A stretch of 53,293 nucleotides of DNA from an uncultured Clostridia bacterium (GCA_944381095.1 CALWJW010000002.1:1-53293), one strand, 5' to 3'; shown: positions 4,396-50,336, counted from the first letter of the stretch. Numbers and translations: made by a program. Notes: generated by a model from the sequence alone, not told the origin.

Positions 4396-4404
4396 CCGTT
4401 AAAT

Positions 4405-7284: not shown

Positions 7285-7398
7285 ATTAACATCCTTTCGG
7301 GAGCGTATACTTTCATACAAATCCGTTATATTATACTATAATAATATAATAAAAAAACAGCCAAGTTTTGAAGAAATGTAAAACTTTTAATAAATCCA

Positions 7399-7427
7399 TT
7401 GACTTTACCGGTTGAAAAGTGTATCAT
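7399..7427 (+). promoter_or_regulatory. Candidate promoter for sufC-sufBD
   Basis: TTGACT (7399-7404), 17-nt spacer, TATCAT (7422-7427). Confidence 0.35.
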
Positions 7428-7478
7428 TGTAAGGAAAAATCAAATCAATAACGTGTAAAAAACGAAAGGGAATTATAA

Positions 7479-8213: not shown

Positions 8214-8227
8214 CGGGAGAATATTGT

Positions 8228-9539: not shown

Positions 9540-10469
9540 TCATTTAAAAAAGTCTCCTGCCGAAATTTTGTTGCCGTTGATGAAATCCTTTACCGGCATT
9601 TTTCTTTTGCTTTCAGGAAAGACCTCGTAAATTCTCAGTTTACCATTCCCGCAGGTTACATCAATGTGATTTTTGCTTACGTCTGTTACTTTTCCCGGAA
9701 TTCCCGTGAAATCTGATTCAACAGGTTCGGCAGATGTTACCTTGATTTTTTTACCGTTGAAAACGAAATATGCATAAGGAAAAGGTGTCAGTGCCCTGAT
9801 TTTTGCGCCGATCTTTAACGCGTCTTCGGAAAAATTTATGGCTTCATCTTCTTTACCGATCTTTTCCGCATACGTGGCAAGCGAGGGGTTTTGAGGAGTA
9901 AATACGGCTGTTCCGTTAGAAAACATATCGAGCACTTCGGTAAGAGCCTTACCGCTGAGAACGGCGAGGCGGTCGTGTACCGATTCGAGAGTATCAGAAT
10001 CGGTAATAGGAGTTTTGAGGACATGTATTATGTCGCCCGTATCGAGACCTTTTTCCATTTTCATTATCGTTACCCCTGTTTCGGTCTCACAGTTCATAAT
10101 AGCTCGCTGCATAGGGGCAGCACCTCTGTACTTGGGTAAAACCGATGCATGCGCATTTATGCAACCGTAACGGGGAAGCTTCAAAATAGTTTCGGGCAGT
10201 AATTTTCCGTAAGCCACAACTATTATAATATCCGGTTCGATATTTCTCAGATCTTTAAGAAACCCTTCATCTGACAGTCTTTCCGGTTGCAAAACCGGTA
10301 TATTCCGATCTGTTGCAAAGCGTTTTACCGAAGATTCTTTCAGACCGTAACCGCGACCTGCCGGTTTATCCGGTGTGGTTACTGCGGCTGACGGCACAAA
10401 GCCGGCGTCACAGAGATATTTCAGTACAATGGCGGAAAATTCGGGAGTTCCCATAAACACAGTTTTCAT
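9540..10469 (-). CDS. fmt: Methionyl-tRNA formyltransferase
   Basis: It has the N-terminal MGTPEFS and the HASVLPKYRGAAPMQRAI motif. It overlaps the def stop by 4 nt. Confidence 0.9.
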   Translation of the reverse strand: MKTVFMGTPEFSAIVLKYLCDAGFVPSAAVTTPDKPAGRGYGLKESSVKRFATDRNIPVLQPERLSDEGFLKDLRNIEPDIIIVVAYGKLLPETILKLPRYGCINAHASVLPKYRGAAPMQRAIMNCETETGVTIMKMEKGLDTGDIIHVLKTPITDSDTLESVHDRLAVLSGKALTEVLDMFSNGTAVFTPQNPSLATYAEKIGKEDEAINFSEDALKIGAKIRALTPFPYAYFVFNGKKIKVTSAEPVESDFTGIPGKVTDVSKNHIDVTCGNGKLRIYEVFPESKRKMPVKDFINGNKISAGDFFK

Positions 10470-10948
10470 TCACCAAGCTCCTCAATTTCCTCTTTTGTAA
10501 GCATCCTCAGAGCTTTATCGGTATACAAGACTCCGTCAAGGTGGTCTGTCTCATGACAAATTGCTCTCGCAAGAAGGTCAGTACCTTCAAGTACATAATA
10601 TTTTCCGTTACGATCCATTGCCTTTACTTTAACTGTTGTCGGTCTTTCGGTAATACCCCATCTCCCGGGAATTGACAAACAACCTTCAAGTTCATGCTGA
10701 ACTTCCTTTGATTTCTCAATAATAACAGGATTTATCATCTCGTACAGTTTTCCTGATTCTGTTTCAATGATAACGACGCGACGTAATACGCCGACCTGCG
10801 GAGCCGCGAGTCCGACTCCGTTGGCTTTGTGTAAGGTGTCTTTCATATCGTCAAGTAATGTAATTATTCGGGGAGTAATTGACTCGACAGGGCGGCTTAT
10901 TTTTCTCAGCTGTGGTTCGTCATCTGTAAGTATTTTCAGTATTGCCAT
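10466..10948 (-). CDS. def: Peptide deformylase
   Basis: The motifs are GVGLAAPQVG, EGCLSIPG and HETDHLDG. The start is taken at ATG 10948 (MAILKIL) after GGAGAAAACA. The ORF track extends to 11002. Confidence 0.9.
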   Translation of the reverse strand: MAILKILTDDEPQLRKISRPVESITPRIITLLDDMKDTLHKANGVGLAAPQVGVLRRVVIIETESGKLYEMINPVIIEKSKEVQHELEGCLSIPGRWGITERPTTVKVKAMDRNGKYYVLEGTDLLARAICHETDHLDGVLYTDKALRMLTKEEIEELGE

Positions 10949-11150
10949 TGTTTTCTCCGATTCTGCCTGCTGGGGCTTTTGTATATTTCTTATATCGTCC
11001 AAACCAGCGTTTTTTGATTAACTGCTGATTTGAATATAGACTATTAAGCGGCGCATTTTGGTTAAATTTTTATTGTGTAAAATCTCGAATTGAAATTGCA
11101 TGGTGTACTTTTGATAATAATTGTGTGTTTTTGATAATCAAAGCAAAAAA

Positions 11151-31667: not shown

Positions 31668-33035
31668 ATGAACAGTTTATCAAAAAATAACCTCTTTGAA
31701 GACGCACCGATTCCGAGTGCGGTGAAAAAGTTGGTAATACCAACCATTTTAAGTTCGCTTGTAATGGTTTTGTACAATTTAGCTGACACTTTTTTTGTCG
31801 GACAACTCAATGACCCGGTTCAGAATGCCGCTGTGACGCTGGTGGCACCACTGATGCTGGCTTTCAACGCCGTTAACAATCTGTTCGGTGTAGGAAGTTC
31901 AAGTATGATGAGCAGGGCGCTCGGTCGTAAAGACTACGAAACTGTAAAACGAAGCGCTTCCATCGGACTGTACTGCTCTGTCTTTTTCGGAATTCTTTTT
32001 TCTCTGCTTTCACTCATATTTTATACTCCGCTTCTTAAACTTCTGGGAGCTGACGCAACAACCTCGGAAGCCACGGCTGGGTACATGCTGTGGACGGTAA
32101 TATTCGGAGCGATGCCTTCAATACTGAACGTTGTTATGGCGTATCTGGTAAGGGCAGAGGGAAACTCTATGCATGCAAGCATAGGAACAATGAGCGGCTG
32201 TTTCCTTAACATGATACTTGATCCGATATTTATTTTTGCTTTTAATATGGGTGCCGCCGGCGCCGGTATAGCCACTTTTATATCAAACTGTTTTGCTTGC
32301 GGATACTTTTTAGTTTTGCTTTACAAGATGAGAAAATACACGTATATAAGTATAAATCCTAAAAATTTCAAACCGGATATAAAGGTCATAACAGGAATAT
32401 TTGCGGTCGGCATACCTGCGTCAATACAGAATTTGCTGAATGTTATCGGGATGACTGTACTCAATAATCTTACTTCTGTATACGGAGCTGATGCCGTTGC
32501 TGCTATGGGAATAGCGCAGAAAATTTATATGGTACCGGCGCAGATAGCACTCGGTGGAACGCAAGGGGTTATGCCGCTTGTCAGTTATTCCTATTCATCA
32601 AAGAATTTCAAGAGATTCAAAGATTCAATTTCCTTTCTGTCGGTTATGCTCCTTCCGGCGATGCTGTTGATTGCATTTATCGCTTTTTTGACGTCGCCTG
32701 TGCTGATGAAACTTTTTATTGAAAATGATGCAGTAATAAATTTCGGTAATATCTTTTTCAGAGCGATGATTTGTGCTGCCCCATTCCTTGTGACCGACTT
32801 CCTGGTCGTCGGAGTCTGTCAGGCGATCGGAAGAGGAAAAATATCGCTTGCGTTTGCAATCTACAGAAAACAAGAGCTCGAAAAAACATCAATTGTTGAC
32901 CTTAATCTGATATTCGCCGAAAACGGCAGAGCTCTCGGAGCGCTTATAGCGGAACTTGTCATGTCGGTCGTCGGCTTTTTCACGTTACTTCACATTGTCA
33001 GAAAATTCAAAAAAGAAACAGAAACTTGTATGTGA
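31668..33035 (+). CDS. MATE family efflux transporter
   Basis: 455 aa and 12-TM-like. The N-terminus AVKKLVIPTILSSLVMVLYNLADTFFVGQL is typical of MATE/NorM proteins. Confidence 0.85.
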   Translation: MNSLSKNNLFEDAPIPSAVKKLVIPTILSSLVMVLYNLADTFFVGQLNDPVQNAAVTLVAPLMLAFNAVNNLFGVGSSSMMSRALGRKDYETVKRSASIGLYCSVFFGILFSLLSLIFYTPLLKLLGADATTSEATAGYMLWTVIFGAMPSILNVVMAYLVRAEGNSMHASIGTMSGCFLNMILDPIFIFAFNMGAAGAGIATFISNCFACGYFLVLLYKMRKYTYISINPKNFKPDIKVITGIFAVGIPASIQNLLNVIGMTVLNNLTSVYGADAVAAMGIAQKIYMVPAQIALGGTQGVMPLVSYSYSSKNFKRFKDSISFLSVMLLPAMLLIAFIAFLTSPVLMKLFIENDAVINFGNIFFRAMICAAPFLVTDFLVVGVCQAIGRGKISLAFAIYRKQELEKTSIVDLNLIFAENGRALGALIAELVMSVVGFFTLLHIVRKFKKETETCM

Positions 33036-36948: not shown

Positions 36949-38307
36949 ATGGTTAAGCAAATGACTGAGGGCAGACCTTTAAAACTGATATTCGGATTTT
37001 CCGTACCGCTTATACTGGGTAATGTCATACAGCAAATGTACAGCTGGGCTGATACAATGATGGTCGGAAAACTTATCAGCAATGAGGCGCTGGCTGCTGT
37101 CGGAGCCACAGGAGCAATCACATTTCTGATTCTTGGATTTGTAAACGGAGTGACCGAGGGTTCATGTATACTTTTAGCAAGATACTTCGGAGCCGGTGAC
37201 AACAAAAATCTTCGTAAATGCGCGGTTAATCTTGTTGTAGTGTGTTGTTCGGTTGTGGCAGTGTTGACTGCTGTGGCACTCAGATTCAACCGGGAAATTC
37301 TCGATATAATGAAAACCCCTGATAACATAATAGCAGATACAGAGGCCTATTTACAGATAATATACGCCGGAATGTTCACCCTGATGCTTTATAATCTGGG
37401 TGCCGGTATACTGAGAGCGCTCGGTGACAGCAGGTCGCCGTTGTATTTTCTTGTGATCGCTTCAATATTGAATATAGTGCTGAATTATGTTTTCATAGTT
37501 TATTTTTCAATGGGAGTACGAGGCGCCGCATACGGTACCATAGTCGCTCAGCTCGTCTCGGGAATTCTCTGTTTCGTATTTATTTTTGCAAAGTGCAGAA
37601 TAATCAGACCGGAACGACCTGATCTAAAACTGCAAGGCAACCTTGTAATAAAAATATGCATGATGGGAATACCTATGGCGCTTCAATATTCCATAACTGC
37701 AATAGGCTCAATTTTTCTTCAAACCGCAATAAACAATCTCGGAAGCGATACCATAGCCGCGTTTACAGTAGGGGAGAAAGTGCTTAATTTTTCATGGGCA
37801 GTCCTTAACTGCATTGGTGTTGCCTTGGCAAACTTTTGCAGCCAGAATGTAGGAGCTATGAAAATAGACCGGGTTAAGTCAGGTGTCAAGGCAACACTGC
37901 GCATGATATTTGTTCTTACCGTCGTATTTGCATTGATTTTATTATTTTTCGGGAAATATATTGCCATGCTGTTTCTCGAAAATAATTCTGAGAACGTTCT
38001 TGAAATAATTGAAATGTTTTTCCGAATCCAGGCTCCGTGCCTTTTCGCCCTTTCTATGATCGGCGTATTCAGAAATGTAATACAAGGAACAGGATACAGT
38101 CTTCAAGCAATGCTTGCCGGTATTTTTGAGCTGGTCGGACGAAGTACCATAGCTCTCGGCTTTGTGGGAAAATACGGTTTTGTTGCTGCTTGCGTGGCAA
38201 GCCCGTGCGCTTGGATTCTTGCCGATTGTCTGCTGATACCGATGTATTTTTACGTTATGAGAAAGCTGAGCGCCAAAGCTGATTACGAAAAAACACTGTC
38301 TGCTTAG
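36949..38307 (+). CDS. MATE family efflux transporter
   Basis: 452 aa and 12-TM-like, containing PLKLIFGFSVPLILGNVIQQMYSWADTMMVG. Confidence 0.85.
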   Translation: MVKQMTEGRPLKLIFGFSVPLILGNVIQQMYSWADTMMVGKLISNEALAAVGATGAITFLILGFVNGVTEGSCILLARYFGAGDNKNLRKCAVNLVVVCCSVVAVLTAVALRFNREILDIMKTPDNIIADTEAYLQIIYAGMFTLMLYNLGAGILRALGDSRSPLYFLVIASILNIVLNYVFIVYFSMGVRGAAYGTIVAQLVSGILCFVFIFAKCRIIRPERPDLKLQGNLVIKICMMGIPMALQYSITAIGSIFLQTAINNLGSDTIAAFTVGEKVLNFSWAVLNCIGVALANFCSQNVGAMKIDRVKSGVKATLRMIFVLTVVFALILLFFGKYIAMLFLENNSENVLEIIEMFFRIQAPCLFALSMIGVFRNVIQGTGYSLQAMLAGIFELVGRSTIALGFVGKYGFVAACVASPCAWILADCLLIPMYFYVMRKLSAKADYEKTLSA

Positions 38308-38383: not shown

Positions 38384-39799
38384 TCAGAATCCAAAGTAAT
38401 TTTTGGTATTATTGTAGCATATATCTATAACAATATTGGCAATCGCTTCAATGTCGTACGGGAACTCGCCGTTTTCGACCCATTCACCGACCAGGTTGCA
38501 AAGAATTCTTCTGAAATACTCATGACGCGGGTAAGATATAAAGCTCCTTGAATCGGTAAGCATTCCCAAGAAATTTCCGAACGACGAAAGATTGGCAAGT
38601 GTAATCATCTGAGCTCTCATACCGGTCAGATTGTCGTTGAACCACCACGCACTGCCCTGCATGAGTCTTGGCATACCGCCTTCGCTGTCACATTGATAAG
38701 AACCAAGCAGAGTGGCGACAGCCGCGTTCTCGTTCGGATCTATCGGATAAATTACGCACCTCGGCAGTCCGTCGTTCATGGTCATTCTGTCAAACAAGGA
38801 GGCGAGCGCCGATACGCTGTTTCTGCTGTTTCCTATCATGTCAAAACCGGTGTCGGCACCGAGTTTTTTATACCACACGGAATTGGGATTGCGAAGAACT
38901 CCGTAATGTATCTGCATTACAAAATGACGTTTTGTATATTCCTTTGCAAAGAAAATCAGCATTGCGGTAATGAATTTGTCGGCGTCTTCTTTTGAAGCGT
39001 TGCCGTCATTTTCATAAGCGGTGCGGAAAATCACGTCAAGTTCCTTTTCATTTTTCGGCAACAGGCAGGGAACATAGTCAAGACCGTGATCCGCTGTTTT
39101 ACAGCCGGCTTTTTCAAAAAAGTCCAGTCTGTTGATATAGGCCTGTTTTAATGTGGCAAAATCCTTGATTTCCACGCCGGATGCCTCGGAAAGCTGATCA
39201 ATGTATTTTCTGTAGCCGTCAAGATATATTTTAAGACCTTTGTCAGGGCGGAAGGCAGGAAGGACCTTAACGCCGAAATTTTTGTCATTTGCAATTTCCG
39301 AATGATACCGCAGATCGTCAATCGGGTCATCAGTCGTGCAAAGTATTTCTACGCCTGAATTTTTTACAATATTTTTTGCTGACATTTCAGGCAGAGTCAA
39401 TTTTTCATTACAAAGATTCCACACCTTGTCGCAAGTATCGGCATTGAGAACCCCGGTATAACCGAAATAGCGGATAAGTTCAAGATGTGACCAATGATAA
39501 AGAGGATTTCCTATCAGTTTAGGCATACATCCGGCATAAGCTCTGAATTTTTCATAGTCAGAGGCGTTTCCTGTAATAAGTTCTTCGCTTATACCGCATG
39601 AACGCATTGCGCGCCATTTGTAATGATCTCCGCCGAGCCAGAGTTCAGTGATGTTTCTGTATGACTTGTTTTCCGCGATCTCCTTGGGGCTGATGTGGCA
39701 ATGGTAGTCAATAATAGGTAATTTTGACGCATAATTGTCGTACAGAATTTTGGCTGTTTCGTTTTTGAGCAAAAAATCCTCATCAATAAATTTCAACAT
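38384..39799 (-). CDS. uxaC: Glucuronate isomerase
   Basis: FLLKNETAKILY and IIDYHCHISPKEI are the typical UxaC N-terminus. The start is taken at ATG 39799 after GGAGGAAATT. The ORF track extends to 39871. Confidence 0.85.
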   Translation of the reverse strand: MLKFIDEDFLLKNETAKILYDNYASKLPIIDYHCHISPKEIAENKSYRNITELWLGGDHYKWRAMRSCGISEELITGNASDYEKFRAYAGCMPKLIGNPLYHWSHLELIRYFGYTGVLNADTCDKVWNLCNEKLTLPEMSAKNIVKNSGVEILCTTDDPIDDLRYHSEIANDKNFGVKVLPAFRPDKGLKIYLDGYRKYIDQLSEASGVEIKDFATLKQAYINRLDFFEKAGCKTADHGLDYVPCLLPKNEKELDVIFRTAYENDGNASKEDADKFITAMLIFFAKEYTKRHFVMQIHYGVLRNPNSVWYKKLGADTGFDMIGNSRNSVSALASLFDRMTMNDGLPRCVIYPIDPNENAAVATLLGSYQCDSEGGMPRLMQGSAWWFNDNLTGMRAQMITLANLSSFGNFLGMLTDSRSFISYPRHEYFRRILCNLVGEWVENGEFPYDIEAIANIVIDICYNNTKNYFGF

Positions 39800-40643
39800 A
39801 ATTTCCTCCGGTATCTGAATATTTTTTGAAAATACAAAATTCAAAAGAAGCTTCGGTAGTGAGTGAGTCAAGCTTTGATAATCTTTTGTAATCTGATTCA
39901 GAAGTGTTATATCTGTATGGAGTCATATCAAACAGATCGCGTATAATACTGTTTTCAGGCAAAAATATGTTATAGCTTACACTGTAACGACTTGACTCGA
40001 TGAAAAGAGAAGATTTAAAGGACGGTGGCGGATTTTCCTTCGGATGATCATAAATCTGTTCTTTAAGCGTCCATAAATGCCGGGCTCCCGGGCTGACTGT
40101 GATGAGATAGCCGCCTTTTTTGAGTACTCTGAAAAATTCCTGTTCAGCCAAAGGTGCAAAAAGCGACAACAAAAAATCGAATTGTAAATCGGCAAAAGGG
40201 AGTTTATTTACGCTCGAAACTGAGAAATCTATATCTTTGTATTGCTTTGCAGCGGATTTGACTGCGTCTTTTGAAACATCTGTACCGTATATGTCGCAGT
40301 TTAATCCATTCAATGTCAAAGCGGATTTTAAGTTTCCGGCGTAGTATCCCTCACCACATCCGGCGTCAAGCAGGGAGAAAGCTGAGCGTGGTACAGCCAA
40401 ACCGGAAATCAGACGGGTAAGATTATCGACGATCGGAAAATATAAACCGAGTTGAAGAAACCTTCTGCGTGACCGGATCATTTCTTTTGTGTCGCCGTGA
40501 AGCCCGGATCTTTTGTTACCGAGCAGAAGATTTACATAACCTTCGGAGGAAATATCATACGAATGTCCAACAGGACATTTCAGCTGATTGCCGGTTTTAA
40601 AAAGATTCCGGCAGCATTTAGGACAAATATACGTAATTATCAC
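39783..40643 (-). CDS. rlmA: 23S rRNA (guanine-N1)-methyltransferase RlmA-like
   Basis: It has an N-terminal zinc finger (CPKC...CPVGHSYDISSEGYVNLL) and the SAM motif LDAGCGEGYY. It overlaps the uxaC start by 17 nt. Confidence 0.75.
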   Translation of the reverse strand: MIITYICPKCCRNLFKTGNQLKCPVGHSYDISSEGYVNLLLGNKRSGLHGDTKEMIRSRRRFLQLGLYFPIVDNLTRLISGLAVPRSAFSLLDAGCGEGYYAGNLKSALTLNGLNCDIYGTDVSKDAVKSAAKQYKDIDFSVSSVNKLPFADLQFDFLLSLFAPLAEQEFFRVLKKGGYLITVSPGARHLWTLKEQIYDHPKENPPPSFKSSLFIESSRYSVSYNIFLPENSIIRDLFDMTPYRYNTSESDYKRLSKLDSLTTEASFEFCIFKKYSDTGGNYVEIY

Positions 40644-41731: not shown

Positions 41732-42080
41732 CCCGGTAAAAAAAGCATTGATAGCTTTTTTGGTTATTTTTCCGACGTTTGGAATAGGAAGTACACTTTA
41801 TATTTTCTTGATTTCCGATAAAATGTCTGCCGATTCCGAAAACAGAATTATTTATCCGGCAAAAGAAGCTGTTCTTAATTTGATAACGCTCGGAATTTAT
41901 GGAATAGTATGGACTTACCGCACGTCTTGTCTTATTGACAAACGTAACGGCTTTACGGAATTCAGCGCAAGTACGCTTATTTGCACACTTCTTTCCTGTT
42001 TTCCGCTTCGTTGTATATCCATGGCACTGCTTATTTACCGTCTTGATAACGCGGAAATGACAGAATACGGAGAAAACTGA
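41724..42080 (+). CDS. Small membrane protein, DUF4234-like
   Basis: 118 aa with hydrophobic helices and an LGIYGIVWTYR motif. Its start overlaps the upstream stop (ATGAATAA). Confidence 0.5.
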   Translation: MNNPVKKALIAFLVIFPTFGIGSTLYIFLISDKMSADSENRIIYPAKEAVLNLITLGIYGIVWTYRTSCLIDKRNGFTEFSASTLICTLLSCFPLRCISMALLIYRLDNAEMTEYGEN

Positions 42081-43906
42081 TGACAGCAATAGCGTGTGAA
42101 AATATTTCACTCAGTTACGGAACTGACGTAATACTGGATAAAATAACATTCAGCATAAATGAAGGTGATAAGTTAGGCATTATCGGTGTAAACGGTGCGG
42201 GTAAGACTACCCTCATAAATATACTTACCGGTGAGCTTCAGCCTGACAGCGGGAAGGTTTATCTTCCGAAAAATTTAAAAACCGGATACCTGAAACAAAA
42301 CATAGATTTTGACAGTGATAAGCCGGTTTTTTACGCGCTTTCCGATAGATTTACTTACACCGGAAGCGACGAAAACAGCTTAGAACAGCAAAAAGGCGAA
42401 TATCTCAGTCGGGTGAAAGGCTTTTTGAAAAATCTCGGATTTTCTGATGATGAGATGTATGAACTACCGCTTTCAAGTCTCAGCGGAGGTCAGAAAACGC
42501 GCGCTGCAACTGCCGCGGTACTTCTCGGTGATTACCAGCTTCTGATTCTCGACGAGCCTACTAACCACTTGGATGTAAGTGCGCTGGAATGGCTTGAGGA
42601 TTACCTGAAAGCAACAAAAAAAACACTGATAGTTATTTCTCACGACAGGTTTTTTCTTGACAAGATCACAAATAAGATTTTTGAGATAGAGAACACAAAG
42701 GGGAAATTATATGTCGGAAATTATTCGGCTTATTCTGATAAAAAAAAGAAAGACCGTGAAATTCAGGAAAGGCATTATCTGAATCAGCAAAAGGAAATAG
42801 CCAGAATAGAGGCGTTCATCGAAAATCAGCACCGCTGGAACCGTGAGCGTAACATTATTGCGGCTGAAAGCCGTGAGAAGATGTTGCAAAGAATGGTTAA
42901 AGAAGAAAAGCCGGACAGACTTCCGGAAAAGATCAAATTGAAATTTTCCACATCAGGAAGATCCGGTGACGATGTTGTAACCGTTCGGGGGATCAGTAAA
43001 AGTTACGGAGATAAGAAGCTTTTTTCCGACGTCGGATTCACTGTCAATTACCTGGACAGAGTTTTTATTTCCGGACCTAACGGGTGCGGAAAGTCTACTT
43101 TGATAAAAATTATTGCCGGAAAACTGCTTCCCGACAACGGCAGAGTTGACATAGGATATAATGTGCACCTGAGTTACTTTGATCAGGAAAATCAAGAGTT
43201 GACTGATTCTTTGACGGTAATGGATGAGCTTTGGAATACATCTCCGGGGATGTCACCCGGTCAGATTAGAGATATTCTGGCAAAATTCAGATTTTACGGT
43301 GACGACTGTTTTAAGTCGGTGGGAAAATTGTCAGGCGGAGAAAAAGCCAGGCTGACAATAGCCAAACTTATAATGTCAGACAGTAATCTTTTGATTTTGG
43401 ACGAGCCGACCAATCATCTTGATATAGGGAGCAGAGAAGCGCTTGAAGAAGCTTTGTCGGAATATGAGGGCACTATTATCGCAGTAAGTCACGATCGCTA
43501 TTTTGTTGACAAATTGGCAACAAGAATTTTGGCTTTCGGTGTTATCGAAAATGGTAAGGTTTTGGATTACAAAGGTGATTACAAGGATTTTACAGATTAT
43601 TGTTCTCATTATCTTACATTAAATATCAATAATCAAACTTCATTTGAAAAAGAAACCCAATCAAAGTCAGATTTTATCAGGCAGAAAAAACTGCTATCGG
43701 AACAGAGGAAATTTTTAAAAAAGATTGAAAAGTCCAAAGAAGAAAGCAAACAAATCGAACAAAGACTTTCAAAAATAGAGGAAGAAATATCGCTCTCAGA
43801 AACCAATCATTCCAGACTTTCCGAACTTTTTGAGGAAAAAGAAATTCTCGAAACCAAGTTACTCGATATTTATGAATTTTTAAGTAAAAATTCTGATGAT
43901 TTTTAA
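42080..43906 (+). CDS. ABC-F family ATPase (two NBDs, no membrane domain)
   Basis: Walker A motifs are GVNGAGKTT and GPNGCGKST. Signatures are LSGGQKTR and LSGGEKAR. LILDEPTNHLD occurs twice. There is an inter-NBD linker and a K/E-rich C-terminal coiled coil. The start overlaps the upstream stop (TGATG). Confidence 0.85.
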   Translation: MTAIACENISLSYGTDVILDKITFSINEGDKLGIIGVNGAGKTTLINILTGELQPDSGKVYLPKNLKTGYLKQNIDFDSDKPVFYALSDRFTYTGSDENSLEQQKGEYLSRVKGFLKNLGFSDDEMYELPLSSLSGGQKTRAATAAVLLGDYQLLILDEPTNHLDVSALEWLEDYLKATKKTLIVISHDRFFLDKITNKIFEIENTKGKLYVGNYSAYSDKKKKDREIQERHYLNQQKEIARIEAFIENQHRWNRERNIIAAESREKMLQRMVKEEKPDRLPEKIKLKFSTSGRSGDDVVTVRGISKSYGDKKLFSDVGFTVNYLDRVFISGPNGCGKSTLIKIIAGKLLPDNGRVDIGYNVHLSYFDQENQELTDSLTVMDELWNTSPGMSPGQIRDILAKFRFYGDDCFKSVGKLSGGEKARLTIAKLIMSDSNLLILDEPTNHLDIGSREALEEALSEYEGTIIAVSHDRYFVDKLATRILAFGVIENGKVLDYKGDYKDFTDYCSHYLTLNINNQTSFEKETQSKSDFIRQKKLLSEQRKFLKKIEKSKEESKQIEQRLSKIEEEISLSETNHSRLSELFEEKEILETKLLDIYEFLSKNSDDF

Positions 43907-44022
43907 TTTTTAACATATATTTATTTTGTGTTTTGTAGGTATCCGAATACAAAAATCGACTGGCAGGTCGTCACCATTTTACCACAAAAGGAGATTCCTT
44001 TCATCGGTTAACCTCTTCTCAA

Positions 44023-44050
44023 CCACGCGACTATCGCGTGGTTTTCTGTT
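44023..44050 (+). terminator. Intrinsic terminator after the ABC-F gene
   Basis: CCACGCGA-CTA-TCGCGTGG followed by TTTTCTGTTT. Confidence 0.7.
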
Positions 44051-44054
44051 TACA

Positions 44055-44095
44055 AAAAGCCGCCGAGGATGAATTGTCCTCGGCGGCGCATTTTT
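44055..44095. repeat. GC-rich hairpin A (left boundary of the cassette; also terminator-like)
   Basis: AAAAGCCGCCGAGGA-TGAATTG-TCCTCGGCGGC followed by GCATTTTTC. The 15-nt left arm and the 10-nt right arm are identical to the copy at 50099-50131. Confidence 0.85.
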
Positions 44096-44151
44096 CATTT
44101 AATCAAAATCATTCATAACTTTTTTGCTAATCAGAAATTCATCAATATCTA

Positions 44152-44180
44152 TTGACATTTTTTCAAAAATATGCTACTCT
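44152..44180 (+). promoter_or_regulatory. Candidate cassette promoter
   Basis: TTGACA (44152-44157), 17-nt spacer, weak -10 TACTCT (44175-44180). Confidence 0.35.
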
Positions 44181-44225
44181 ATTTAGGCAATCAAATTACA
44201 AATTTACCGAAATGAGGTGACGAAC

Positions 44226-44306
44226 ATGAAAAAGAATACGATTATGACGATTTTGTTTAAGAGTGCGTATATCTCCATGTCTGTTGCCGCCGGTGAAATT
44301 TTGTAA
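44226..44306 (+). CDS. 26-codon upstream ORF (leader peptide or small hydrophobic peptide)
   Basis: A GAGGTGA SD lies 5 nt before the ATG. The peptide is MKKNTIMTILFKSAYISMSVAAGEIL. It is followed by a hairpin plus U-run. It is too short for the supplied ORF track. Confidence 0.45.
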   Translation: MKKNTIMTILFKSAYISMSVAAGEIL

Positions 44307-44320
44307 TTTCGGCAAAGAAT

Positions 44321-44449
44321 ATGGCTTTTTCACGTGCCCTTATCAAAGGGCGAGTTTTTGTTTGTGCGCCAAAAATAAAATACAAAATCGTCCTTCTTGA
44401 TGTAATGCGATTGCAAATCAAAATGCGTAAGAAGGCGATATTTTTATGA
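44321..44449 (+). CDS. 42-codon basic upstream ORF ending in an ATGA overlap with the ATPase start
   Basis: The peptide is MAFSRALIKGRVFVCAPKIKYKIVLLDVMRLQIKMRKKAIFL. The SD is weak. The frame runs through both leader hairpins, and its TGA (44447-44449) overlaps ATG 44446. It could be a chance open frame in AT-rich DNA. Confidence 0.3.
   Translation: MAFSRALIKGRVFVCAPKIKYKIVLLDVMRLQIKMRKKAIFL
44335..44364 (+). terminator. Attenuator-like hairpin plus U-run in the cassette leader
   Basis: GCCCTT-ATCA-AAGGGC (44336-44351) followed by GAGTTTTTGTTTG. The short stem suggests a leaky terminator. Confidence 0.5.
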
Positions 44450-46524
44450 AAAGATTAAAATCAAAACTTCTCGCCATGGAGCCGAATACTGCGACATATA
44501 CCGAAATGTACAACGGAAGCATCACCAAATGCTACGGTCATCAACCGGAAGAAAAAGACTGGGATCCGACATATTACAATGGCGATGTTGGATTTAGAAT
44601 TACTGCCACTCACAAGCTGGCGCAGGACAAACCAACCGTTACCATTATGTTACCGATTGATTTGATTTTGAACGATTATGATGAAATTAAAGAAAGAATG
44701 CCGATAAAAAGACTAAAATATTATCTCTTGAATATGCAAAATGATACAAGCACATACAAAGAAATGTATGACGGTGAAATTGAGGACAACTTTCCGTCAA
44801 CTGCATGGGACGGTCACTCTATGGAGCCTGAAATACATCAAACTTCAATATATTGGCACGAGGACAAATCCTGTGAGATTACAAGCACTCACAAATTAGC
44901 ACAGAGCAAGCCGACAGTAACATGGAACGTGCCGATTGAAAATTTCGGCTTTGAAAACATAACAACAGCCGCTGCAGATTATTGCTTACGTGCATTTGCA
45001 CCATATATTGATGAGCTTAATGACGAACTCTATAACCGTTCCCGTCCCGATGACGAAAACGGTAAATATTATCTTTACAAGCCTAGCGGTGAGGTACTTG
45101 TACGCAACACAGCATATTTTGCTCTTTGCCCGCAAAAGGATTATGAAAACGGAAGTGGGAACACGGTATATATGTTAAATGATGGGTTATCACGTCCTCC
45201 CAAAATGTGTCTATGTATCCGAATGCAAGTGCAACTGCCGAAAAGAAAGCTCCGTAAGACTATTCAAATGCTATGCCGTGATCTGCCCAATGCTGTTGAT
45301 ATGTTCATCTCACAATTTGATATTGTAAAGTTCAATGAAGCTATTGCACTTTCAGAAAAGCAAAATGCGATCAGATCGTGGCTTAAAGACAGCCCTTACT
45401 GTTCCTTTATTGCCAACGGAAGTATTTTACCTCGCTCTAAGGGAACAGATCTTCCTATGCTGAATGCCGTGCCATTTCAATCCACACCCGAAGATGAGAT
45501 TGAAGTATGCGGCGTTCGTGGCATGGGAATCAAACGAGGGGTAACGGTTATCACCGGCGGAGGTTATTCGGGAAAATCTACACTCCTTGATGCCATATCT
45601 GCGGGCATTTACGACCATATAATCGGTGATGGTCGAGAACTCTGTATTACAGATGAAAGTGCTATGACTATATCCGCAGAAGATGGGAGAAGTGTAAAAT
45701 CTGTCAATATCTCACCATTCATAAAATGGCTACCAGACGGTGATACACATAATTTTTCATCAGAGCACGCTTCGGGTTCAACATCTCAGGCAACGAACAT
45801 TATGGAAGCTGTGGATTACGGTGCAAAGCTACTTCTTATCGATGAGGACAGAAGTGCTACAAACTTCATGATTCGTGACAAAATGATGAAGGAACTGATA
45901 GAAAAAGAGCCGATCACGCCGTTTACAGACCGGGTAAATGAACTATATGCGTCCTGCGGCGTTTCAACAATTCTTGTCATTGGCGGAAGCGGCGAATATC
46001 TGTCGGTTGCAGAAAGAATTTATATGATGGAAGACTATCTGATTCACGATGTGACGGAAAAATCGAAGGCTATCTGTGCTACTCACGGCGTAAAAGCAGA
46101 CCTGTCCCAGCCGACCACATGGCGGCAAAGTCGCACGCTTTATTCGGATCATTTTTCATCCTACCCCGAGGGAAGCGGTACGGAAAAGCTTGGTGTTTCG
46201 GATATGGGTTTCATAATCATCGGTGATGAAATTATCGACATCCGCGGACTTCACGATATTGTGTCCAAACGCCAACTGGATGCTCTCGGCTATATGCTTC
46301 GCTATCTTGAAACTCACAACATAGATCGGAAGATCGACATTGATGCTCGAATTAACGAACTATACGATGAGATCGAAAAAGATGGGCTTGATACGGTCTT
46401 TTCAAACTTTTTCACGACGACTGAGCGATTTCTTGATCTTCCGAGAAAATTTGAACTGAAGGCGGTTATCAACCGCATGAGGCATATTGATTATATAGGA
46501 GAAATTCTGCATGACCAAATGTAA
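44446..46524 (+). CDS. Soluble ABC-fold ATPase (Pfam PF09818-like, predicted ATPase of the ABC class) with a duplicated N-terminal module
   Basis: The motifs are FIANGSILPR, Walker A TGGGYSGKSTLLDAI, ASGSTSQATNIMEA, Walker B LLLIDEDRSATNFMIRD and ILVIGGSGEYL. There are no TM segments. Residues 1-86 and 87-170 are paralogous. Confidence 0.7.
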   Translation: MKRLKSKLLAMEPNTATYTEMYNGSITKCYGHQPEEKDWDPTYYNGDVGFRITATHKLAQDKPTVTIMLPIDLILNDYDEIKERMPIKRLKYYLLNMQNDTSTYKEMYDGEIEDNFPSTAWDGHSMEPEIHQTSIYWHEDKSCEITSTHKLAQSKPTVTWNVPIENFGFENITTAAADYCLRAFAPYIDELNDELYNRSRPDDENGKYYLYKPSGEVLVRNTAYFALCPQKDYENGSGNTVYMLNDGLSRPPKMCLCIRMQVQLPKRKLRKTIQMLCRDLPNAVDMFISQFDIVKFNEAIALSEKQNAIRSWLKDSPYCSFIANGSILPRSKGTDLPMLNAVPFQSTPEDEIEVCGVRGMGIKRGVTVITGGGYSGKSTLLDAISAGIYDHIIGDGRELCITDESAMTISAEDGRSVKSVNISPFIKWLPDGDTHNFSSEHASGSTSQATNIMEAVDYGAKLLLIDEDRSATNFMIRDKMMKELIEKEPITPFTDRVNELYASCGVSTILVIGGSGEYLSVAERIYMMEDYLIHDVTEKSKAICATHGVKADLSQPTTWRQSRTLYSDHFSSYPEGSGTEKLGVSDMGFIIIGDEIIDIRGLHDIVSKRQLDALGYMLRYLETHNIDRKIDIDARINELYDEIEKDGLDTVFSNFFTTTERFLDLPRKFELKAVINRMRHIDYIGEILHDQM

Positions 46525-48301
46525 TTTGCTGTTAAAATCCGTTAGATTTTCTGCTTCCATGATTTATAAGTCAAGCGGATTGTGGATTGTTATCTATTTT
46601 CTGTTATCCTTGACGGTATCCACATTCGGGCTTGCATCGACCTATATACTGAAATATCTGCTGGATGCTTTAACGGTAGAAAATATAGTGCTTCAAAGCA
46701 TTATTACATGGATTGCCGTTTATATTGCGGTTTTACTCTTGTCGCAAGGTGCTAAATCCGTACAGGATATTTTATATGACACTATATTTCAGAAAGCCGC
46801 TCATTTGTATGATCGCCGACTTTCCGAAAAACTGTCTGCATTGCCGTTGTCGGTAATTGATTCGTCCGAAGGTAAGGATACGGTAGATGATGTGCGGTAT
46901 GCAAAAAATATCGCCGTGTATCTGACAAACCGCCTAGTTCGTTTGTTTTCACTTGGCTATACATTTGGCGTGGCATTTGCGGCACTTATCTTTTTCAATG
47001 TATGGTCTTCGCTCTTGCTTTTGCTCCTGACGGTTCCCGGTTTGATTTTGCAGTTGATGTATGATAAAAAAGCGGAAGATCTTCGCAGAAAACAAGCACC
47101 GGATGTGCGTAAATTCTGCTATTATCGTTGGATGCTGACCGATCCGTGGCCGGCTAAGGATGTGCGGATGTATGATTTAACAGAGCCGATCAGGAAACGC
47201 TATGATGAAGTCAAAGGTGAATACATTTCTGCCAATAAGCGACTTGATAAGAAGAAACTCTTTTCAATGCTTTTTGCTGAAATTGTTTTAAGATTAGGAG
47301 AAATTATATTTACCATTTTCGTTGTTATAAAAGCACTTCGTGGCGAAATAGGTATTGGCGATGTGGCTCTGTATGTAGGACTTGCTCTCTCCGCTGTTAA
47401 TGCTTTTGAGAGTTTTATGAATATCGGACTTATGACCTACACAAGAACTACCGAGGTCATGTCCCGTGTATTCGATTTTTTTGCTATTCCTACCGAGAGC
47501 AAGTCGGGAACAAGGACATTGGAAGCCTTTGAGTCACTTGAGTTTCGGAATGTGTGCTTCAAATATCCATATACAGACAACGATGTGTTGAAGGGCGTTA
47601 CCTTCATATTGAATAAGGGTGACAAGCTATCTCTTGTGGGCATAAACGGCTCAGGAAAATCCACAATTATCAAGTTGATGCTCGGTCTTTATGAAATTGA
47701 ATCGGGCGAAATACTGATCAACGGCTATCCCATGTCCGACTATGACATTCGTGATGTTCGCAAGTTGTTCTCAGCTCTTTTCCAAAGTTTTGTTCAGTAT
47801 CCGCTGTCTTTGCGGGATAATATTGCATTGTCTGATTACGGCAGAGCTGCGGAAGATGATGCGATCATCGATTCCTTAAAGCAAAGCGGTGTGTACGACG
47901 AATTGCAGGAAAAGCTTGCAAACGGTCTTGACTCTTATATGACAAGGCAATTTGATGATAAGGGTACGGAACTTTCCAAAGGTCAATGGCAAAAAGTAGC
48001 ACTCTCCCGTGCATACTTTAAAAATGCCGATATTCTCATTTTTGATGAGCCGTCGGCAGCTCTTGATGCCGAAGCGGAGGACAGAATTTTCAAAAACTTT
48101 GAGTTTATATGCGAGGGTAAGACAGGCATTATGATCTCTCACCGCATTTCTGCGGCTCGGATGTCAAATAAGATACTTGTCCTTGACGGCGGAGTTATCA
48201 CCGAAAGTGGTACTCATAATGAACTGATTGAAAAGAACGGGCTGTATGCAAAGCTTTACAACCTCCAGAAAGAGAAGTATACGGCAAAGGAGGGGGCATA
48301 G
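46511..48301 (+). CDS. ABC exporter half-transporter (TMD-NBD), subunit 1
   Basis: The N-terminal half is hydrophobic and multi-TM. Walker A is GINGSGKST, the signature is LSKGQWQKVALSRA, Walker B is ILIFDEPSAALD and the H-loop is ISHR. There is no C39 peptidase domain. The SD is AGGAG. It overlaps the ATPase gene by 14 nt. Confidence 0.85.
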   Translation: MTKCNLLLKSVRFSASMIYKSSGLWIVIYFLLSLTVSTFGLASTYILKYLLDALTVENIVLQSIITWIAVYIAVLLLSQGAKSVQDILYDTIFQKAAHLYDRRLSEKLSALPLSVIDSSEGKDTVDDVRYAKNIAVYLTNRLVRLFSLGYTFGVAFAALIFFNVWSSLLLLLLTVPGLILQLMYDKKAEDLRRKQAPDVRKFCYYRWMLTDPWPAKDVRMYDLTEPIRKRYDEVKGEYISANKRLDKKKLFSMLFAEIVLRLGEIIFTIFVVIKALRGEIGIGDVALYVGLALSAVNAFESFMNIGLMTYTRTTEVMSRVFDFFAIPTESKSGTRTLEAFESLEFRNVCFKYPYTDNDVLKGVTFILNKGDKLSLVGINGSGKSTIIKLMLGLYEIESGEILINGYPMSDYDIRDVRKLFSALFQSFVQYPLSLRDNIALSDYGRAAEDDAIIDSLKQSGVYDELQEKLANGLDSYMTRQFDDKGTELSKGQWQKVALSRAYFKNADILIFDEPSAALDAEAEDRIFKNFEFICEGKTGIMISHRISAARMSNKILVLDGGVITESGTHNELIEKNGLYAKLYNLQKEKYTAKEGA

Positions 48302-50085
48302 TGAAAACGAATAAGATCAAAGTTTTTTTCGGCGGACTTTTCAAAAATATCTGGTTCGGTATTAAAACGAGCTTCCTTGCCTCCAAATTCTATTTTTCAA
48401 TGAAGCTTTTGATTTTGCTCTCCACCACCGTCATTCCGCTTGTTAATATCTGGCTTTGGAAAGAGGTACTTAACGGCATTGTGGCAAATGAAATACAACC
48501 TGTGTTCATCATTCTTAGCGTTTATCTCAGTTTGAAGCTTATCGCATACCTGCTTGCTCAGTTTGATAACTATGTTAATGGGCGTTACAGCGATCAATTG
48601 CAGTTCTATATCGAGACGGTCATGATGGAAAAAACCTCGCGCGTGGATCTTGCTTTCTTCGACTCCGCTCAAATGGGTGATAAAGTTCGCCATGCAAGAA
48701 GCAATTTTGAAGTCATGACGGATATGACTTGGCTTGTTTTTAACATTCTGTCCTGCACTGTGAATGTGGTGGCGACCTTGATTATCGTGTCAAGTTACAA
48801 ATGGTGGCTCGGTATTATTACTTTGGTTCTGTTGATTCCGTATTTTCTCTATAATAAGTGGTACACAGATAAGCGATTCAGAATGGAGAAGGAGCAACTG
48901 CGTGACAACCGGAAAAAGGATTTCTACGGCGGTGTATTTTTTGACAACAATATTCAGTTTGAGATCAAGTTGAACAATATCGGGGACTACTTTATCCGCC
49001 GATATAAAGAGATGTGGAAGGAGCTCTACCACATCAATAAAAAAGAAGATATACGGCACAATCTTCGCAGCATGTTGATTATGATCCTGTGTGTATCGGC
49101 AGAGGCAATCGTGCTTGTTCTGTCGGTAATGGATGTTATTGCAAAAAAAAACGGAATCGGCGATCTTCAGTATAATCTTAGCATGGTGTCCCGTCTCCGC
49201 TCCGAGTCACAGGCACTTATGAGCAATGTGACGCTATTCCTTACCAACAACACACGACTGATTGAATTGCAGGAATTTATGGCAATTGAAGCGCAAACCG
49301 AGAAAAGCGGCATCAAACAGCCGTCTGCGAATCCAAAAATCGAGTTTTGCAATGTCTCCTTCCGCTATCCGAACAGTGAGCAGTATGTGCTGAAGGATTG
49401 CTCATTTACCATCGAACCGCACGAAAAAGTGGGGATTATCGGACTGAACGGTGCCGGAAAATCGACTATTATCAAGTTGATGTTTCGCTTTTATGATCCG
49501 GAAGAAGGTGTGATTAAACTCGATGGAGTAGACCTAAAGGAATACGATGTGTATGCCGTCCGCAAGGTGTTTGGAGTCCTGTTCCAGGATTTCGTTACAT
49601 ATTGTTTGCCACTCCGTGAGATTATCGCCCTATCCGATTTTGAAAATCGATTTGACGACGAAAAACTGAAAAAGGCATGCGATATCAGTGGTGCAAGTGA
49701 GATAATCAAGGATTGGGAGCAGGGATTTGACAGCGTTCTCGGACGATACTATGCCGACAACGGGAAAGATTTGTCCGGAGGGCAGTGGCAACTCGTCGGA
49801 TTGGCAAGAGCCTATTTCAAGGACAGTGAGTATATGATACTTGATGAACCATCTGCCGCTTTGGATCCCATCTCAGAGGACAGGATTTTTGAACAGCTTT
49901 ATCATCTGAGTGAAGGAAAAAGCTCTGTAACGATTTCACATCGCCTATCCAATACAACACTTGCGGATAAAATTTTAGTCATAGAAGACGGACATATTAT
50001 CGAACAAGGCTCACATTTTGAACTGTTGAAGCAGAACGGACAGTATGCAAAGCTCTTTAATCTCCAGGCAAGCAAGTATGTTTAA
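48301..50085 (+). CDS. ABC exporter half-transporter (TMD-NBD), subunit 2
   Basis: The GTG start shares its G with the upstream TAG, after AAGGAGGGGG. Walker A is GLNGAGKST, the signature is LSGGQWQLVGLARA, Walker B is YMILDEPSAALD and the H-loop is ISHR. Confidence 0.85.
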   Translation: MKTNKIKVFFGGLFKNIWFGIKTSFLASKFYFSMKLLILLSTTVIPLVNIWLWKEVLNGIVANEIQPVFIILSVYLSLKLIAYLLAQFDNYVNGRYSDQLQFYIETVMMEKTSRVDLAFFDSAQMGDKVRHARSNFEVMTDMTWLVFNILSCTVNVVATLIIVSSYKWWLGIITLVLLIPYFLYNKWYTDKRFRMEKEQLRDNRKKDFYGGVFFDNNIQFEIKLNNIGDYFIRRYKEMWKELYHINKKEDIRHNLRSMLIMILCVSAEAIVLVLSVMDVIAKKNGIGDLQYNLSMVSRLRSESQALMSNVTLFLTNNTRLIELQEFMAIEAQTEKSGIKQPSANPKIEFCNVSFRYPNSEQYVLKDCSFTIEPHEKVGIIGLNGAGKSTIIKLMFRFYDPEEGVIKLDGVDLKEYDVYAVRKVFGVLFQDFVTYCLPLREIIALSDFENRFDDEKLKKACDISGASEIIKDWEQGFDSVLGRYYADNGKDLSGGQWQLVGLARAYFKDSEYMILDEPSAALDPISEDRIFEQLYHLSEGKSSVTISHRLSNTTLADKILVIEDGHIIEQGSHFELLKQNGQYAKLFNLQASKYV

Positions 50086-50098
50086 TCGCCAAAATTAG

Positions 50099-50131
50099 AA
50101 AAGCCGCCGAGGACAAATTCGTCCTCGGCGG
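50099..50131. repeat. GC-rich hairpin A' (right boundary of the cassette)
   Basis: AAAAGCCGCCGAGGAC-AAATTC-GTCCTCGGCGG. It shares AAAAGCCGCCGAGGA and TCCTCGGCGG with hairpin A. The U-run is on the minus strand only. Confidence 0.85.
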
Positions 50132-50197
50132 AAACTTTGTTGCATTTTGTAATACTATCTTTCGATTTATAACCTCATGCTATTGAAGTTGGGATAC

Positions 50198-50250
50198 TCA
50201 AATAAAACAAATAACCCGAACAACTCTCCAAGCAGGAGAACGTTCGGATT
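50198..50250 (-). terminator. Intrinsic terminator downstream of tRNA-Pro
   Basis: The minus strand reads AATCCGAACGTTCTCCTGCTTGGAGAGTTGTTCGGGTT, a long stem with one mismatch, followed by ATTTGTTTTATTT. Confidence 0.65.
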
Positions 50251-50259
50251 ATTTTCATG

Positions 50260-50336
50260 TGGTCGGAGTGACAGGACTTGAACCTGCGGCCTCTTGGTCC
50301 CGAACCAAGCGCACTACCAAACTGTGCCACACCCCG
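50260..50336 (-). tRNA. tRNA-Pro (anticodon CGG), CCA encoded
   Basis: The reverse complement reads CGGGGTG-TG-GCAC...GTGC-G-CTTGG-TTCGGGA-CCAAG-AGGCC-GCAGG-TTCAAGT-CCTGT-CACTCCG-A-CCA. It is 77 nt and all four arms pair. Confidence 0.9.

Follow-up and report, generated by a model that had tools for sequence, protein, structure and literature searches.

What does a soluble ATPase of the ABC class do in front of the two genes of an ABC exporter, and do the three proteins belong to one function? This question is raised by a unit of three open reading frames (ORFs) in a 53,293-nucleotide (nt) stretch of DNA from an uncultured Clostridia bacterium (GCA_944381095.1 CALWJW010000002.1:1-53293), hereafter called the window. 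We found that the partnership between such an ATPase gene and exporter genes is real, recurrent and facultative on both sides. We tentatively propose, with somewhat less than even confidence, that the window carries an operon under attenuator control, here as an orphan export or immunity module, and that its PF09818 ATPase and the heterodimeric exporter recruited to it are the two halves of a single inducible response. Coordinates without a label are those of the window; labels such as L014 or L088 denote comparison loci or contigs. The three genes are as follows.

44446-46524, plus strand: ORF1, PF09818 ABC-class ATPase, 692 amino acids (aa)
46511-48301, plus strand: ORF2, half-transporter with a transmembrane domain and a nucleotide-binding domain (TMD-NBD), signature LSKGQ, 596 aa
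48301-50085, plus strand: ORF3, TMD-NBD half-transporter, signature LSGGQ, GTG start, 594 aa

All three lie on one strand with overlapping stop and start codons throughout. ORF1 and ORF2 share 14 nt (ATGACCAAATGTAA), and ORF2 and ORF3 share 1 nt, the GTG start of ORF3 using the G of the ORF2 stop codon TAG. A terminator scan inside the ORF1-ORF3 unit gave none above chance, and the three genes are probably co-transcribed. The three ORFs, both overlaps, the quoted ORF1 motifs and the neighbouring tRNA-Pro gene had been described in an earlier, sequence-only reading of this DNA, and all of them were confirmed in place.

The ATPase-exporter pairing recurs

A forward census was made of 80 species-representative loci carrying PF09818 homologues at 48-73% identity. 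Orthologues of ORF2 and ORF3 (50-76% identity) follow the PF09818 gene in L012, L014, L016, L018, L031, L036 and L043. The pairs found behind PF09818 in L002, L055, L026 and L035 are other exporters, 27-41% identical to ORF2/ORF3, and about 50 PF09818 loci with sufficient downstream DNA have no exporter. A full-length TMD-NBD gene starts 0-3 kb downstream on the same strand in 8 of 68 informative loci (plus 3 in which it is cut by the contig end). Elsewhere, such a gene was found at 3 loci in 1.85 Mb of flanking DNA, which amounts to a 26-fold excess at the downstream position (Poisson 1e-9, uncorrected for phylogeny). Overall, an exporter adjoins about 16% of the related PF09818 genes and is lacking from about 84%. 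The exporters found behind PF09818 genes fall into three lineages with less than 35% mutual identity.

Exporter group I: the window's lineage
Exporter group II: L002/L055/L086/L026/L035
Exporter group III: L081 (where it overlaps the ATPase gene by 25 nt) and L003

The linkage is patchy when placed on a tree of the PF09818 core domain, where even very close sisters differ (L014/L018 vs L015/L017).

The reverse census covered 35 metagenome loci with ORF3 orthologues at 70-96% identity. PF09818 stands directly upstream in about half of the informative exporter lineages (L088, L092, L095, L106-108, L093, L116 and L103); in L097 the PF09818 gene is downstream of the exporter. Exporter orthologues without PF09818 were found in L089/L111, L099/L104, L101, L110 and L120 (a remnant only in L120). 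The 14-nt and 1-nt overlaps of the window are also kept in L082, L087, L088, L092 and L106.

Because about 84% of PF09818 genes lack an exporter and about half of the exporters lack PF09818, the partnership is facultative and an obligate complex is not indicated. The sequence-only reading had proposed a functional module in which the ATPase works with, loads or regulates the exporter. Synteny with exporters, the check that it named, is borne out at 26-fold above background. A physical complex, with the ATPase bound to the exporter (at the NBDs, for instance) so as to load a substrate or gate transport, seems to us fairly unlikely. The conserved coupling (overlaps of 14 nt and 1 nt in the five loci just named, and a 25-nt overlap in L081) and the repeated recruitment of exporters would be expected of such a physical complex; the high proportion of partnerless genes on both sides would not, nor would the small XRE gene (described below) that intervenes in many linked loci. 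Moreover, both exporter NBDs look catalytically self-sufficient, judging from their motifs.

L081 contains two arrangements. At 2897-8274 a PF09818 gene overlaps a group III exporter pair, and at 10001-11897 there is a second, lone PF09818 copy, 86% identical to ORF1 and followed by a 29-aa stub at the position of the ORF2 start. Both copies are flanked by similar genes of about 387 aa, an arrangement suggestive of a segmental duplication in which the exporter was lost.

The ATPase and the exporter

ORF1 matched PF09818 in Pfam with an E-value of 1.9e-100 (336 bits against a gathering cutoff of 23.2), as the sequence-only reading had recognised, and it also matched PF21117 (MRB1590_C; 60 bits against a cutoff of 27). 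It has no hydrophobic segment and carries Walker A and B motifs and a signature-like motif, SGSTSQ. Its parts are listed here.

44446-44709 and 44710-44970, plus strand: N-terminal repeats of about 88 aa
aa 296-552 of ORF1: P-loop domain
aa 584-681 of ORF1: MRB1590_C domain

The first 175 or so residues are two copies of an approximately 88-aa unit (MKRLK…TYxEMYxG…THKLAQDKPTVT; 47% identical, E 4e-17), and this unit occurs in 1, 2 or 3 copies among close PF09818 homologues, giving proteins of about 600, 690 or 775 aa. The N-terminal domain model PF20446, recorded for some close homologues, had no match in ORF1 at E <= 0.01. Profile comparison aligned ORF1 with PDB 5d6a (E 5e-92) and MRB1590 (E 3e-86), in both cases only from residue 255-270 or so onward. 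We then used an AlphaFold2 model of ORF1 built from a 92-sequence alignment (predicted local distance difference test, pLDDT, 83; predicted template-modelling score, pTM, 0.78). In a Foldseek search this model matched 5d6a (E 1.5e-39, TM 0.80) and MRB1590 (TM 0.77-0.79), the remaining matches being bare ABC NBDs. Because the predicted model superposes on 5d6a and MRB1590 over 580-650 columns, N- and C-domains included, we judge ORF1 to be a full-length member of this fold family, the PF09818/MRB1590-type ATPases. A conserved basic stretch, QVQLPKRKLRK, stands at the expected place of MRB1590 Arg199/Arg200, in a region outside the aligned segment.

No NCBIfam or PADLOC model matched ORF1, and exact-sequence look-ups gave no record for ORF1 or for the ABC-F protein encoded upstream of the unit. 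MRB1590 of Trypanosoma brucei is an RNA-binding dimer with a basic N-domain pore (PMC4538832). The literature search agreed with the sequence-only reading that it is the single characterised PF09818 relative: in full-text literature on PF09818, COG3044 and 'ABC-ATPase domain-containing protein', no bacterial functional study was found.

ORF2 and ORF3 each consist of PF00664 followed by PF00005, TMD then NBD, with hydrophobic segments confined to the first 290 aa or so. Pfam found no C39 peptidase domain in either, confirming that they are complete half-transporters of the C39-less kind. They are about 30% identical to each other and are kept as a pair in all orthologous loci. No NCBIfam model reached its cutoff for ORF2 or ORF3 (the best gave 259 bits against 602), and neither was assigned to a named family (MsbA, HlyB, CydDC, bacteriocin C39 exporters, Tet(46) and others). 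From their sequences, they are generic heterodimeric type-I (MsbA/TmrAB-like) half-transporters. The GQWQ motif pointed out in the sequence-only reading is present, but the signatures are not unusual, ORF3 having the canonical LSGGQ and ORF2 a mildly degenerate LSKGQ. We regard GQWQ as a minor point; the Walker A motif, the H-loop His and a Walker B motif that includes the catalytic Glu are intact in both chains.

A leader shared by PF09818 genes

The region upstream of ORF1 contains a promoter candidate, a small ORF and a hairpin followed by a U-run, as had been noted before. The elements are listed here.

44152-44180, plus strand: sigma-70 promoter, TTGACA at 44152-44157, 17 nt, and an extended -10 element, TGcTACTCT, ending at 44180
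44193-44309, plus strand: long-range helix of 17-19 bp (44193-44209 with 44291-44309) enclosing the leader ORF and P1
44216-44228 with 44276-44288, plus strand: hairpin P1
44226-44306, plus strand: leader ORF of 26 codons, MKKNTIMTILFKSAYISMSVAAGEIL, with a Shine-Dalgarno (SD) sequence, GAGGTG, at 44214-44219
44335-44364, plus strand: leader terminator, GCCCTT-ATCA-AAGGGC (hairpin 44335-44352) plus a T-run

These elements had been read as the start of the cassette, but they are not specific to it: at the nucleotide level, they align with the upstream regions of many PF09818 genes, including loci that have no exporter. By iterated nhmmer, the leader element was found in 78 of 108 PF09818 upstream regions, with the consensus TTGACA, 17 nt, TGnTAtAcT, a 5' hairpin and AAAGGAGGCGAT..ATGA…UUAUAUUUAUCGGAUGUCAUAU…AUCGCCUG (canonical examples are L015 9680-10037, L095 2812-3166 and L008 9660-10001). 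The window promoter is the first block of this family-wide leader, aligning in the nhmmer model to the invariant TTGACA...TGnTAtAcT. The window keeps the promoter, 5' untranslated region, SD, ORF, P1 and one terminator, and adds the 17-19-bp helix round the ORF; its RNA fold has a z-score of -2.5, and the same design is seen in L036 and L081. We therefore read the window elements as a divergent version of a leader that PF09818 genes across Clostridia have in common, whether or not an exporter follows.

Canonical leaders have one to three intrinsic terminators, with at least one in 58 of 59 leaders. The 5' arm of the first terminator (CACAUCCGA) is complementary to the loop UCGGAUGU, and the arms of the second terminator reuse the words of the first (UCGGRUGY / RCAYCCGA). 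As a candidate antiterminator, the loop UCGGAUGU could pair with the terminator arm ACAUCCGA, and in L013, L019, L044, L060, L072 and L078 a change on one side is compensated on the other. In diverged loci, too, the leader ORF remains complementary to the 5' arm of its own terminator. A covariance model made of P1 and T1 was searched against 1.48 Mb on both strands. It returned about 60 sites at E < 1e-3, all on the sense strand and, with three exceptions (L003, L040 and L061), directly upstream of a PF09818 gene; exporter-only loci in the same 1.48 Mb gave no site. In the model-fitted alignment, which leans towards structure, 93.5% of the cells in leader pairs can pair, compared with 83% after shuffling and 28-47% after sliding. 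Compensatory change was seen in 19 of 20 leader pairs of that same structure-leaning alignment, and P1 and T1 covary. Rfam gave no credible match for the window leader or the canonical leaders, either at the gathering score or at E <= 1. These data suggest a candidate new family of attenuators or cis-regulatory RNAs.

We also analyzed the coding capacity of the leader. Of 59 distinct leaders, 98% have an AUG-initiated ORF that runs for 14 codons or more; lengths range from 5 to 29 codons, and 29 is never exceeded. The conserved nucleotides are read in three frames across lineages, and the sisters L014 and L018 differ by a 2-nt frameshift. It is for these two reasons that we take the RNA and the act of translation, not the peptide, to be what is conserved, and on the same grounds we rejected the leader ORF as a conserved peptide or as a precursor of a ribosomally synthesised and post-translationally modified peptide (RiPP). 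Canonical leaders (L015 9979-10060 and L095 3117-3206) contain a further small reading frame, MMTAITTLLKNERGDAHEEIKK…, which is preceded by an SD and overlaps the beginning of PF09818 in a different frame; it may be a translational-coupling or upstream-ORF element.

A different way of sensing has to be weighed at this point. The leader might be a riboswitch or a protein-binding, possibly autoregulatory RNA, with the ATPase binding RNA as MRB1590 does, maybe its own leader. The near-invariant leader loop UUAUAUUUAUCGGAUGUCAU, which is conserved beyond the needs of pairing and whatever the reading frame, would fit such an RNA, as would the binding of RNA in the N-domain pore of MRB1590 (PMC4538832) and the whole-chain fold similarity of ORF1 to it, N-domain included. 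What such an RNA does not account for is the invariant strong SD and AUG with an ORF open for 14-29 codons in 98% of the leaders, and it has no relative in Rfam. Because the SD and AUG are invariant and the ORF is kept open, translation appears to be part of the mechanism. We therefore hold a purely RNA- or protein-sensing leader to be distinctly unlikely, and it is in any case compatible with the attenuator-controlled operon proposed above.

Association with radical-SAM peptide clusters

Among the nearest diverged relatives are L088 and L092, in which the trio of ATPase and half-transporter genes is 74-83% identical to that of the window. Upstream of the trio in L088, L092 and L106-108 are genes for a radical S-adenosylmethionine (SAM)/SPASM enzyme, a TIGR04066-like protein and a protein of about 95 aa; an S8 protease belongs to the cluster in L088 and L106. 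The best NCBIfam match of the radical-SAM enzyme is TIGR04068 'CcpM', below the curated cutoff (433 and 320 bits against 500). The clusters, which we call CcpM-like, occupy 26-3305 of L088, 334-3308 of L092 and 1-3276 of L106. Immediately upstream of the ATPase gene, L088, L092 and L106-108 share a conserved Cys-rich ORF of 43-44 aa (MKKLLKKRSKPTVQSFSCSCRTCSGCSKWGANGGAATATGTPK), a presumed precursor with the conserved segments …CSCRTCSGCSKWG… and …SFSCSCRTCSGCSKWGANGGAATATGTPK. The L088 copy of this ORF stands between the two arms of a 27-nt inverted repeat (3127-3153 / 3341-3367). Homologous radical-SAM clusters also precede an exporter without PF09818 in L120 and L104, and a different set, comprising a radical-SAM enzyme, acyl carrier protein (ACP) and Mur ligase, stands before the exporter in L089/L111.

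Could the window trio then be the remnant of a RiPP cluster, in which the ATPase helps to mature or process a Cys-rich peptide of the CcpM type and is not a general stress protein? The precursor directly upstream of PF09818 within a radical-SAM/TIGR04066-like/S8 cluster (L088, L092 and L106) and the 74-83% identity of the trios are what one would expect. On the other hand, most PF09818 genes in the 80 species-level loci have no radical-SAM gene or precursor nearby, the homologous clusters of L120 and L104 do without PF09818, and the short ORF typical of the family is conserved as RNA and not as peptide, as the 2-nt frameshift between L014 and L018 indicates. We judge this explanation very unlikely.

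XRE-type regulators and tandem paralogues

The commonest protein-coding partner of PF09818, whether an exporter is present or not, is an XRE-type helix-turn-helix gene (PF01381, 66-75 aa). In 31 of 78 species-level loci (40%) this gene is translationally coupled to PF09818, overlapping its stop codon or beginning shortly after it. Examples are L014 3081-3305, L061 1434-1634 and L003 12090-12315. In L012, L014, L043, L093, L095 and L116 the XRE gene separates the ATPase gene from the exporter; the window has no such gene. Tandem PF09818 pairs, each gene with its own leader, occur in L003 (10007-12744), L012 (5817-9721), L016 (3795-7927), L021 (332-4465) and L056-L060; such pairs combine the canonical type with a deep-branching paralogue about 32% identical to it. 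The upstream 'paralogue' of L082 is a 5'-truncated pseudogene.

A strain-variable island at tRNA-Pro

Next, we compared contigs that have the exact AraC-like and DUF4234 flank proteins of the window, and defined an island from them. Its limits and the features around them are listed here.

43967-50256: strain-variable island of 6.29 kb, between ABC-F and the tRNA-Pro 3' end
42080-43906: ABC-F gene directly upstream of the island, an NCBIfam equivalog
44021-44043, plus strand: terminator-like hairpin downstream of ABC-F, within the island
44059-44087, both strands: hairpin copy A, bidirectional and terminator-like
50104-50131, both strands: hairpin copy B, which serves as terminator for the operon and, in the opposite direction, for tRNA-Pro
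50260-50336, minus strand: tRNA-Pro(CGG), whose 3' end is the right island junction

L136 and L137 match the window at 99.2-99.5% identity as far as 43966 and resume the match at 50257; between these points 1.53 kb of unrelated DNA with a DUF4368 remnant (the C-terminus of a serine recombinase) replaces the island. The window allele is carried by L139, L131, L132, L134 and L087. Both alleles occur within one metagenome sample (L131 and L137, ERZ17292901). In L129 the similarity stops precisely at the tRNA 3' end and gives way to recombinase-like ORFs. L128, with 99% identical flanks, diverges at 50175 into an 8-kb mobile block (L128 5599-13568: HTH_3, ParB_N, relaxase, TnpV and a 560-aa sigma-70-like protein) that lies between tRNA-Pro and an ORF3 allele 78% identical to that of the window; an integrative mobilisable element may be what carries the trio along. 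The islands of L082 and L128 were considered as one and the same, and this was rejected, only the 3' end of ORF3 being common to them.

Because alternative alleles lie between 99% identical flanks, we conclude that the segment 43967-50256 forms an accessory genomic island, the 3' end of tRNA-Pro being the hotspot. The sequence-only reading had suggested an acquired cassette, and the empty or alternative sites, with breaks at 43966/43967 and 50256/50257, uphold it. Its remark that no mobility gene is present also holds: the island segment of the window has no integrase, recombinase or other mobility gene. No att-like direct repeat of the tRNA end was found in the window allele, and the GC content of the island equals that of the flanks, giving no compositional sign of acquisition.

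Less can be made of the hairpins. The one at 44021-44043 had been assigned to ABC-F as its own terminator, but the breakpoint at 43966/43967 is upstream of it, so that it belongs to the island. Copies A and B, said to bracket the cassette, do exist, with a 21-nt direct match at 90% identity and a common arm, CCGCCGAGGAC, that has 4 matches against 0.25 expected by chance. They do not mark the boundaries of acquisition, and they were rejected as att sites, being inside the island and, by comparison across loci, private to the window-type island. Outside such islands, the 11-mer of the arm (CCGCCGAGGAC) occurs only within PF09818 coding sequence, at the codons of an invariant SAEDG (L003 11247, L036 10974, L043 1854, L052 10972, L054 10965, L081 3855 and L047 897), a recurrence that we judged coincidental.

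An island with several alleles, together with the patchy distribution on the PF09818 tree (L014/L018 vs L015/L017), is also what would be seen if the ATPase and the exporter were mere co-resident cargo, adjacent for historical reasons and without a functional link. We find this very unlikely, given that the 26-fold enrichment occurs only at the same-strand, immediately downstream position, that it involves three lineages below 35% identity and that the reading frames overlap.

The window neighbours of the trio include glycosidases, MATE pumps, a glucuronate isomerase, an RlmA-like methyltransferase, an ACP, a zinc-ribbon protein, DUF4234 and ABC-F. The ABC-F gene scored 463 bits against a cutoff of 380 for the NCBIfam 'ribosomal protection-like ABC-F family protein'. 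A homologue of RlmA-like 23S rRNA (G745/G748) methyltransferases is encoded at 39783-40643 (minus strand), and two MATE efflux genes at 31668-33035 and 36949-38307, all within 13 kb upstream of the island. Neither ABC-F nor tRNA-Pro keeps its synteny with the trio in the other species examined.

A model for the locus

We propose the following sequence of events. Transcription would begin at the sigma-70 promoter and enter a leader in which a structured 5' part is followed by a short ORF that is translated and then by an intrinsic terminator. Read-through, together with translational coupling, would then give a soluble, dimer-type ATPase of the PF09818/MRB1590 fold and a heterodimeric type-I exporter. 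In this way, a single leader could switch on both the ATPase and the exporter in response to the state of translation of its short ORF. The exporter would expel a peptide or another toxic compound, and the ATPase would serve as the cytosolic arm of the same response. As to history, PF09818 is normally a stand-alone attenuator-controlled gene, often with a small XRE regulator next to it; exporter pairs of at least three lineages have repeatedly joined it on the downstream side, and the exporter lineage of the window elsewhere ends CcpM-like radical-SAM clusters for Cys-rich peptides. It is from these three points, the stand-alone attenuator-controlled ATPase, the recruited exporters and the CcpM-ending exporter lineage, that we arrive at an inducible orphan export or immunity module.

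Several observations weigh against this proposal. Among the window neighbours examined there is no radical-SAM maturase, protease or precursor near the trio, and for that reason 'immunity' is argued from the relatives. The window leader fits the family model poorly (23.7 bits, E 0.09) and offers no more than a weak candidate for antiterminator pairing (-6.0 vs -5.1 kcal/mol); the nearest trio-bearing relatives, L082, L088 and L092, do not have the canonical leader. The statistics of the pairing enrichment ignore shared ancestry. Finally, the RNA-binding Arg pair of MRB1590 falls just outside the alignable region of ORF1.

A bolder version of the proposal, which we regard as quite unlikely, is that PF09818 proteins are new soluble ABC-type protection factors, controlled by an undescribed ribosome-sensing double-terminator attenuator and joined by recruited exporters against a peptide that targets translation or RNA, the window being a mobile orphan immunity cassette. 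PF09818 would then be functionally analogous to ABC-F ribosome protection and structurally unrelated to it beyond the NBD. An example of such a peptide would be the CcpM-type Cys-rich RiPP encoded beside the orthologous trio in relatives, and the beneficiaries would be gut Clostridia. If the ATPase is indeed a protection or immunity factor, it would represent a new soluble ABC-type resistance mechanism on mobile DNA in these bacteria.

The PF09818 family is large, with at least 7,995 homologues at E <= 0.001, and its one characterised member is a trypanosome mitochondrial RNA-editing factor. The locus and its relatives provide the first coherent clues to its bacterial context: a covarying leader absent from Rfam, an XRE partner, the recruitment of exporters, strain-variable islands and, in some lineages, embedding among radical-SAM genes. 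Each of these clues is directly testable by experiment.

Comparison with known systems

Efflux operons behind leader-peptide attenuators and tRNA-linked islands are already known kinds of systems, whereas no description was found in the searchable literature of the pairing of PF09818 with an exporter, of a leader RNA specific to this family, of the XRE partner or of the RiPP context. MRB1590 is an accessory ATPase of kRNA editing in T. brucei, and 5d6a is an 'ATPase of the ABC class' from Vibrio vulnificus. ORF1 resembles both in having PF09818 plus PF21117, Walker A and B motifs and the predicted fold (TM 0.77-0.80), and differs from both by one extra N-terminal repeat of about 88 aa, relatives having 1-3 copies. 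Unlike MRB1590, it is bacterial, and its gene stands behind a leader/attenuator and before an exporter on a mobile island.

In clusters of the CcpM type (TIGR04068/TIGR04066), the orthologous trio forms the 3' end in L088, L092 and L106 and comes with a conserved precursor, whereas maturase, protease and precursor are all missing in the window. Like other tRNA-associated islands, the window island has its junction at the tRNA 3' end and shows presence/absence and allelic polymorphism among 99%-identical strains. Mobile-element genes in its alternative alleles are a further likeness. The window allele itself differs from such islands in having no integrase, no repeat of the tRNA end and no deviation in GC content.

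Two attenuated efflux systems come closest. In bmrB-bmrCD of Bacillus subtilis, a heterodimeric ABC exporter is controlled by ribosome-mediated attenuation (PMC4191407). This operon and the window have in common a short leader ORF, an intrinsic terminator and two adjacent genes for TMD-NBD half-transporters. Unlike bmrB-bmrCD, the window has a 692-aa soluble ATPase between the leader and the exporter, its leader is ancestrally that of the ATPase and not that of the exporter, and its ORF2 and ORF3 reach no curated family cutoff. In mef(E)/mel(msrD), an efflux pump and a soluble ABC-type ATPase are encoded behind a leader-peptide attenuator on mobile elements (PMC4335068). By analogy, the window may likewise combine an efflux transporter with an ABC-superfamily ATPase without TMD behind an attenuator on mobile DNA, but its ATPase is of the PF09818 family and not ABC-F, and its pump is an ABC exporter and not a member of the major facilitator superfamily. 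Taken together, these likenesses suggest that the leader architecture of the window is of the ribosome-mediated attenuator type, as in bmrB-bmrCD and mef(E)/mel.

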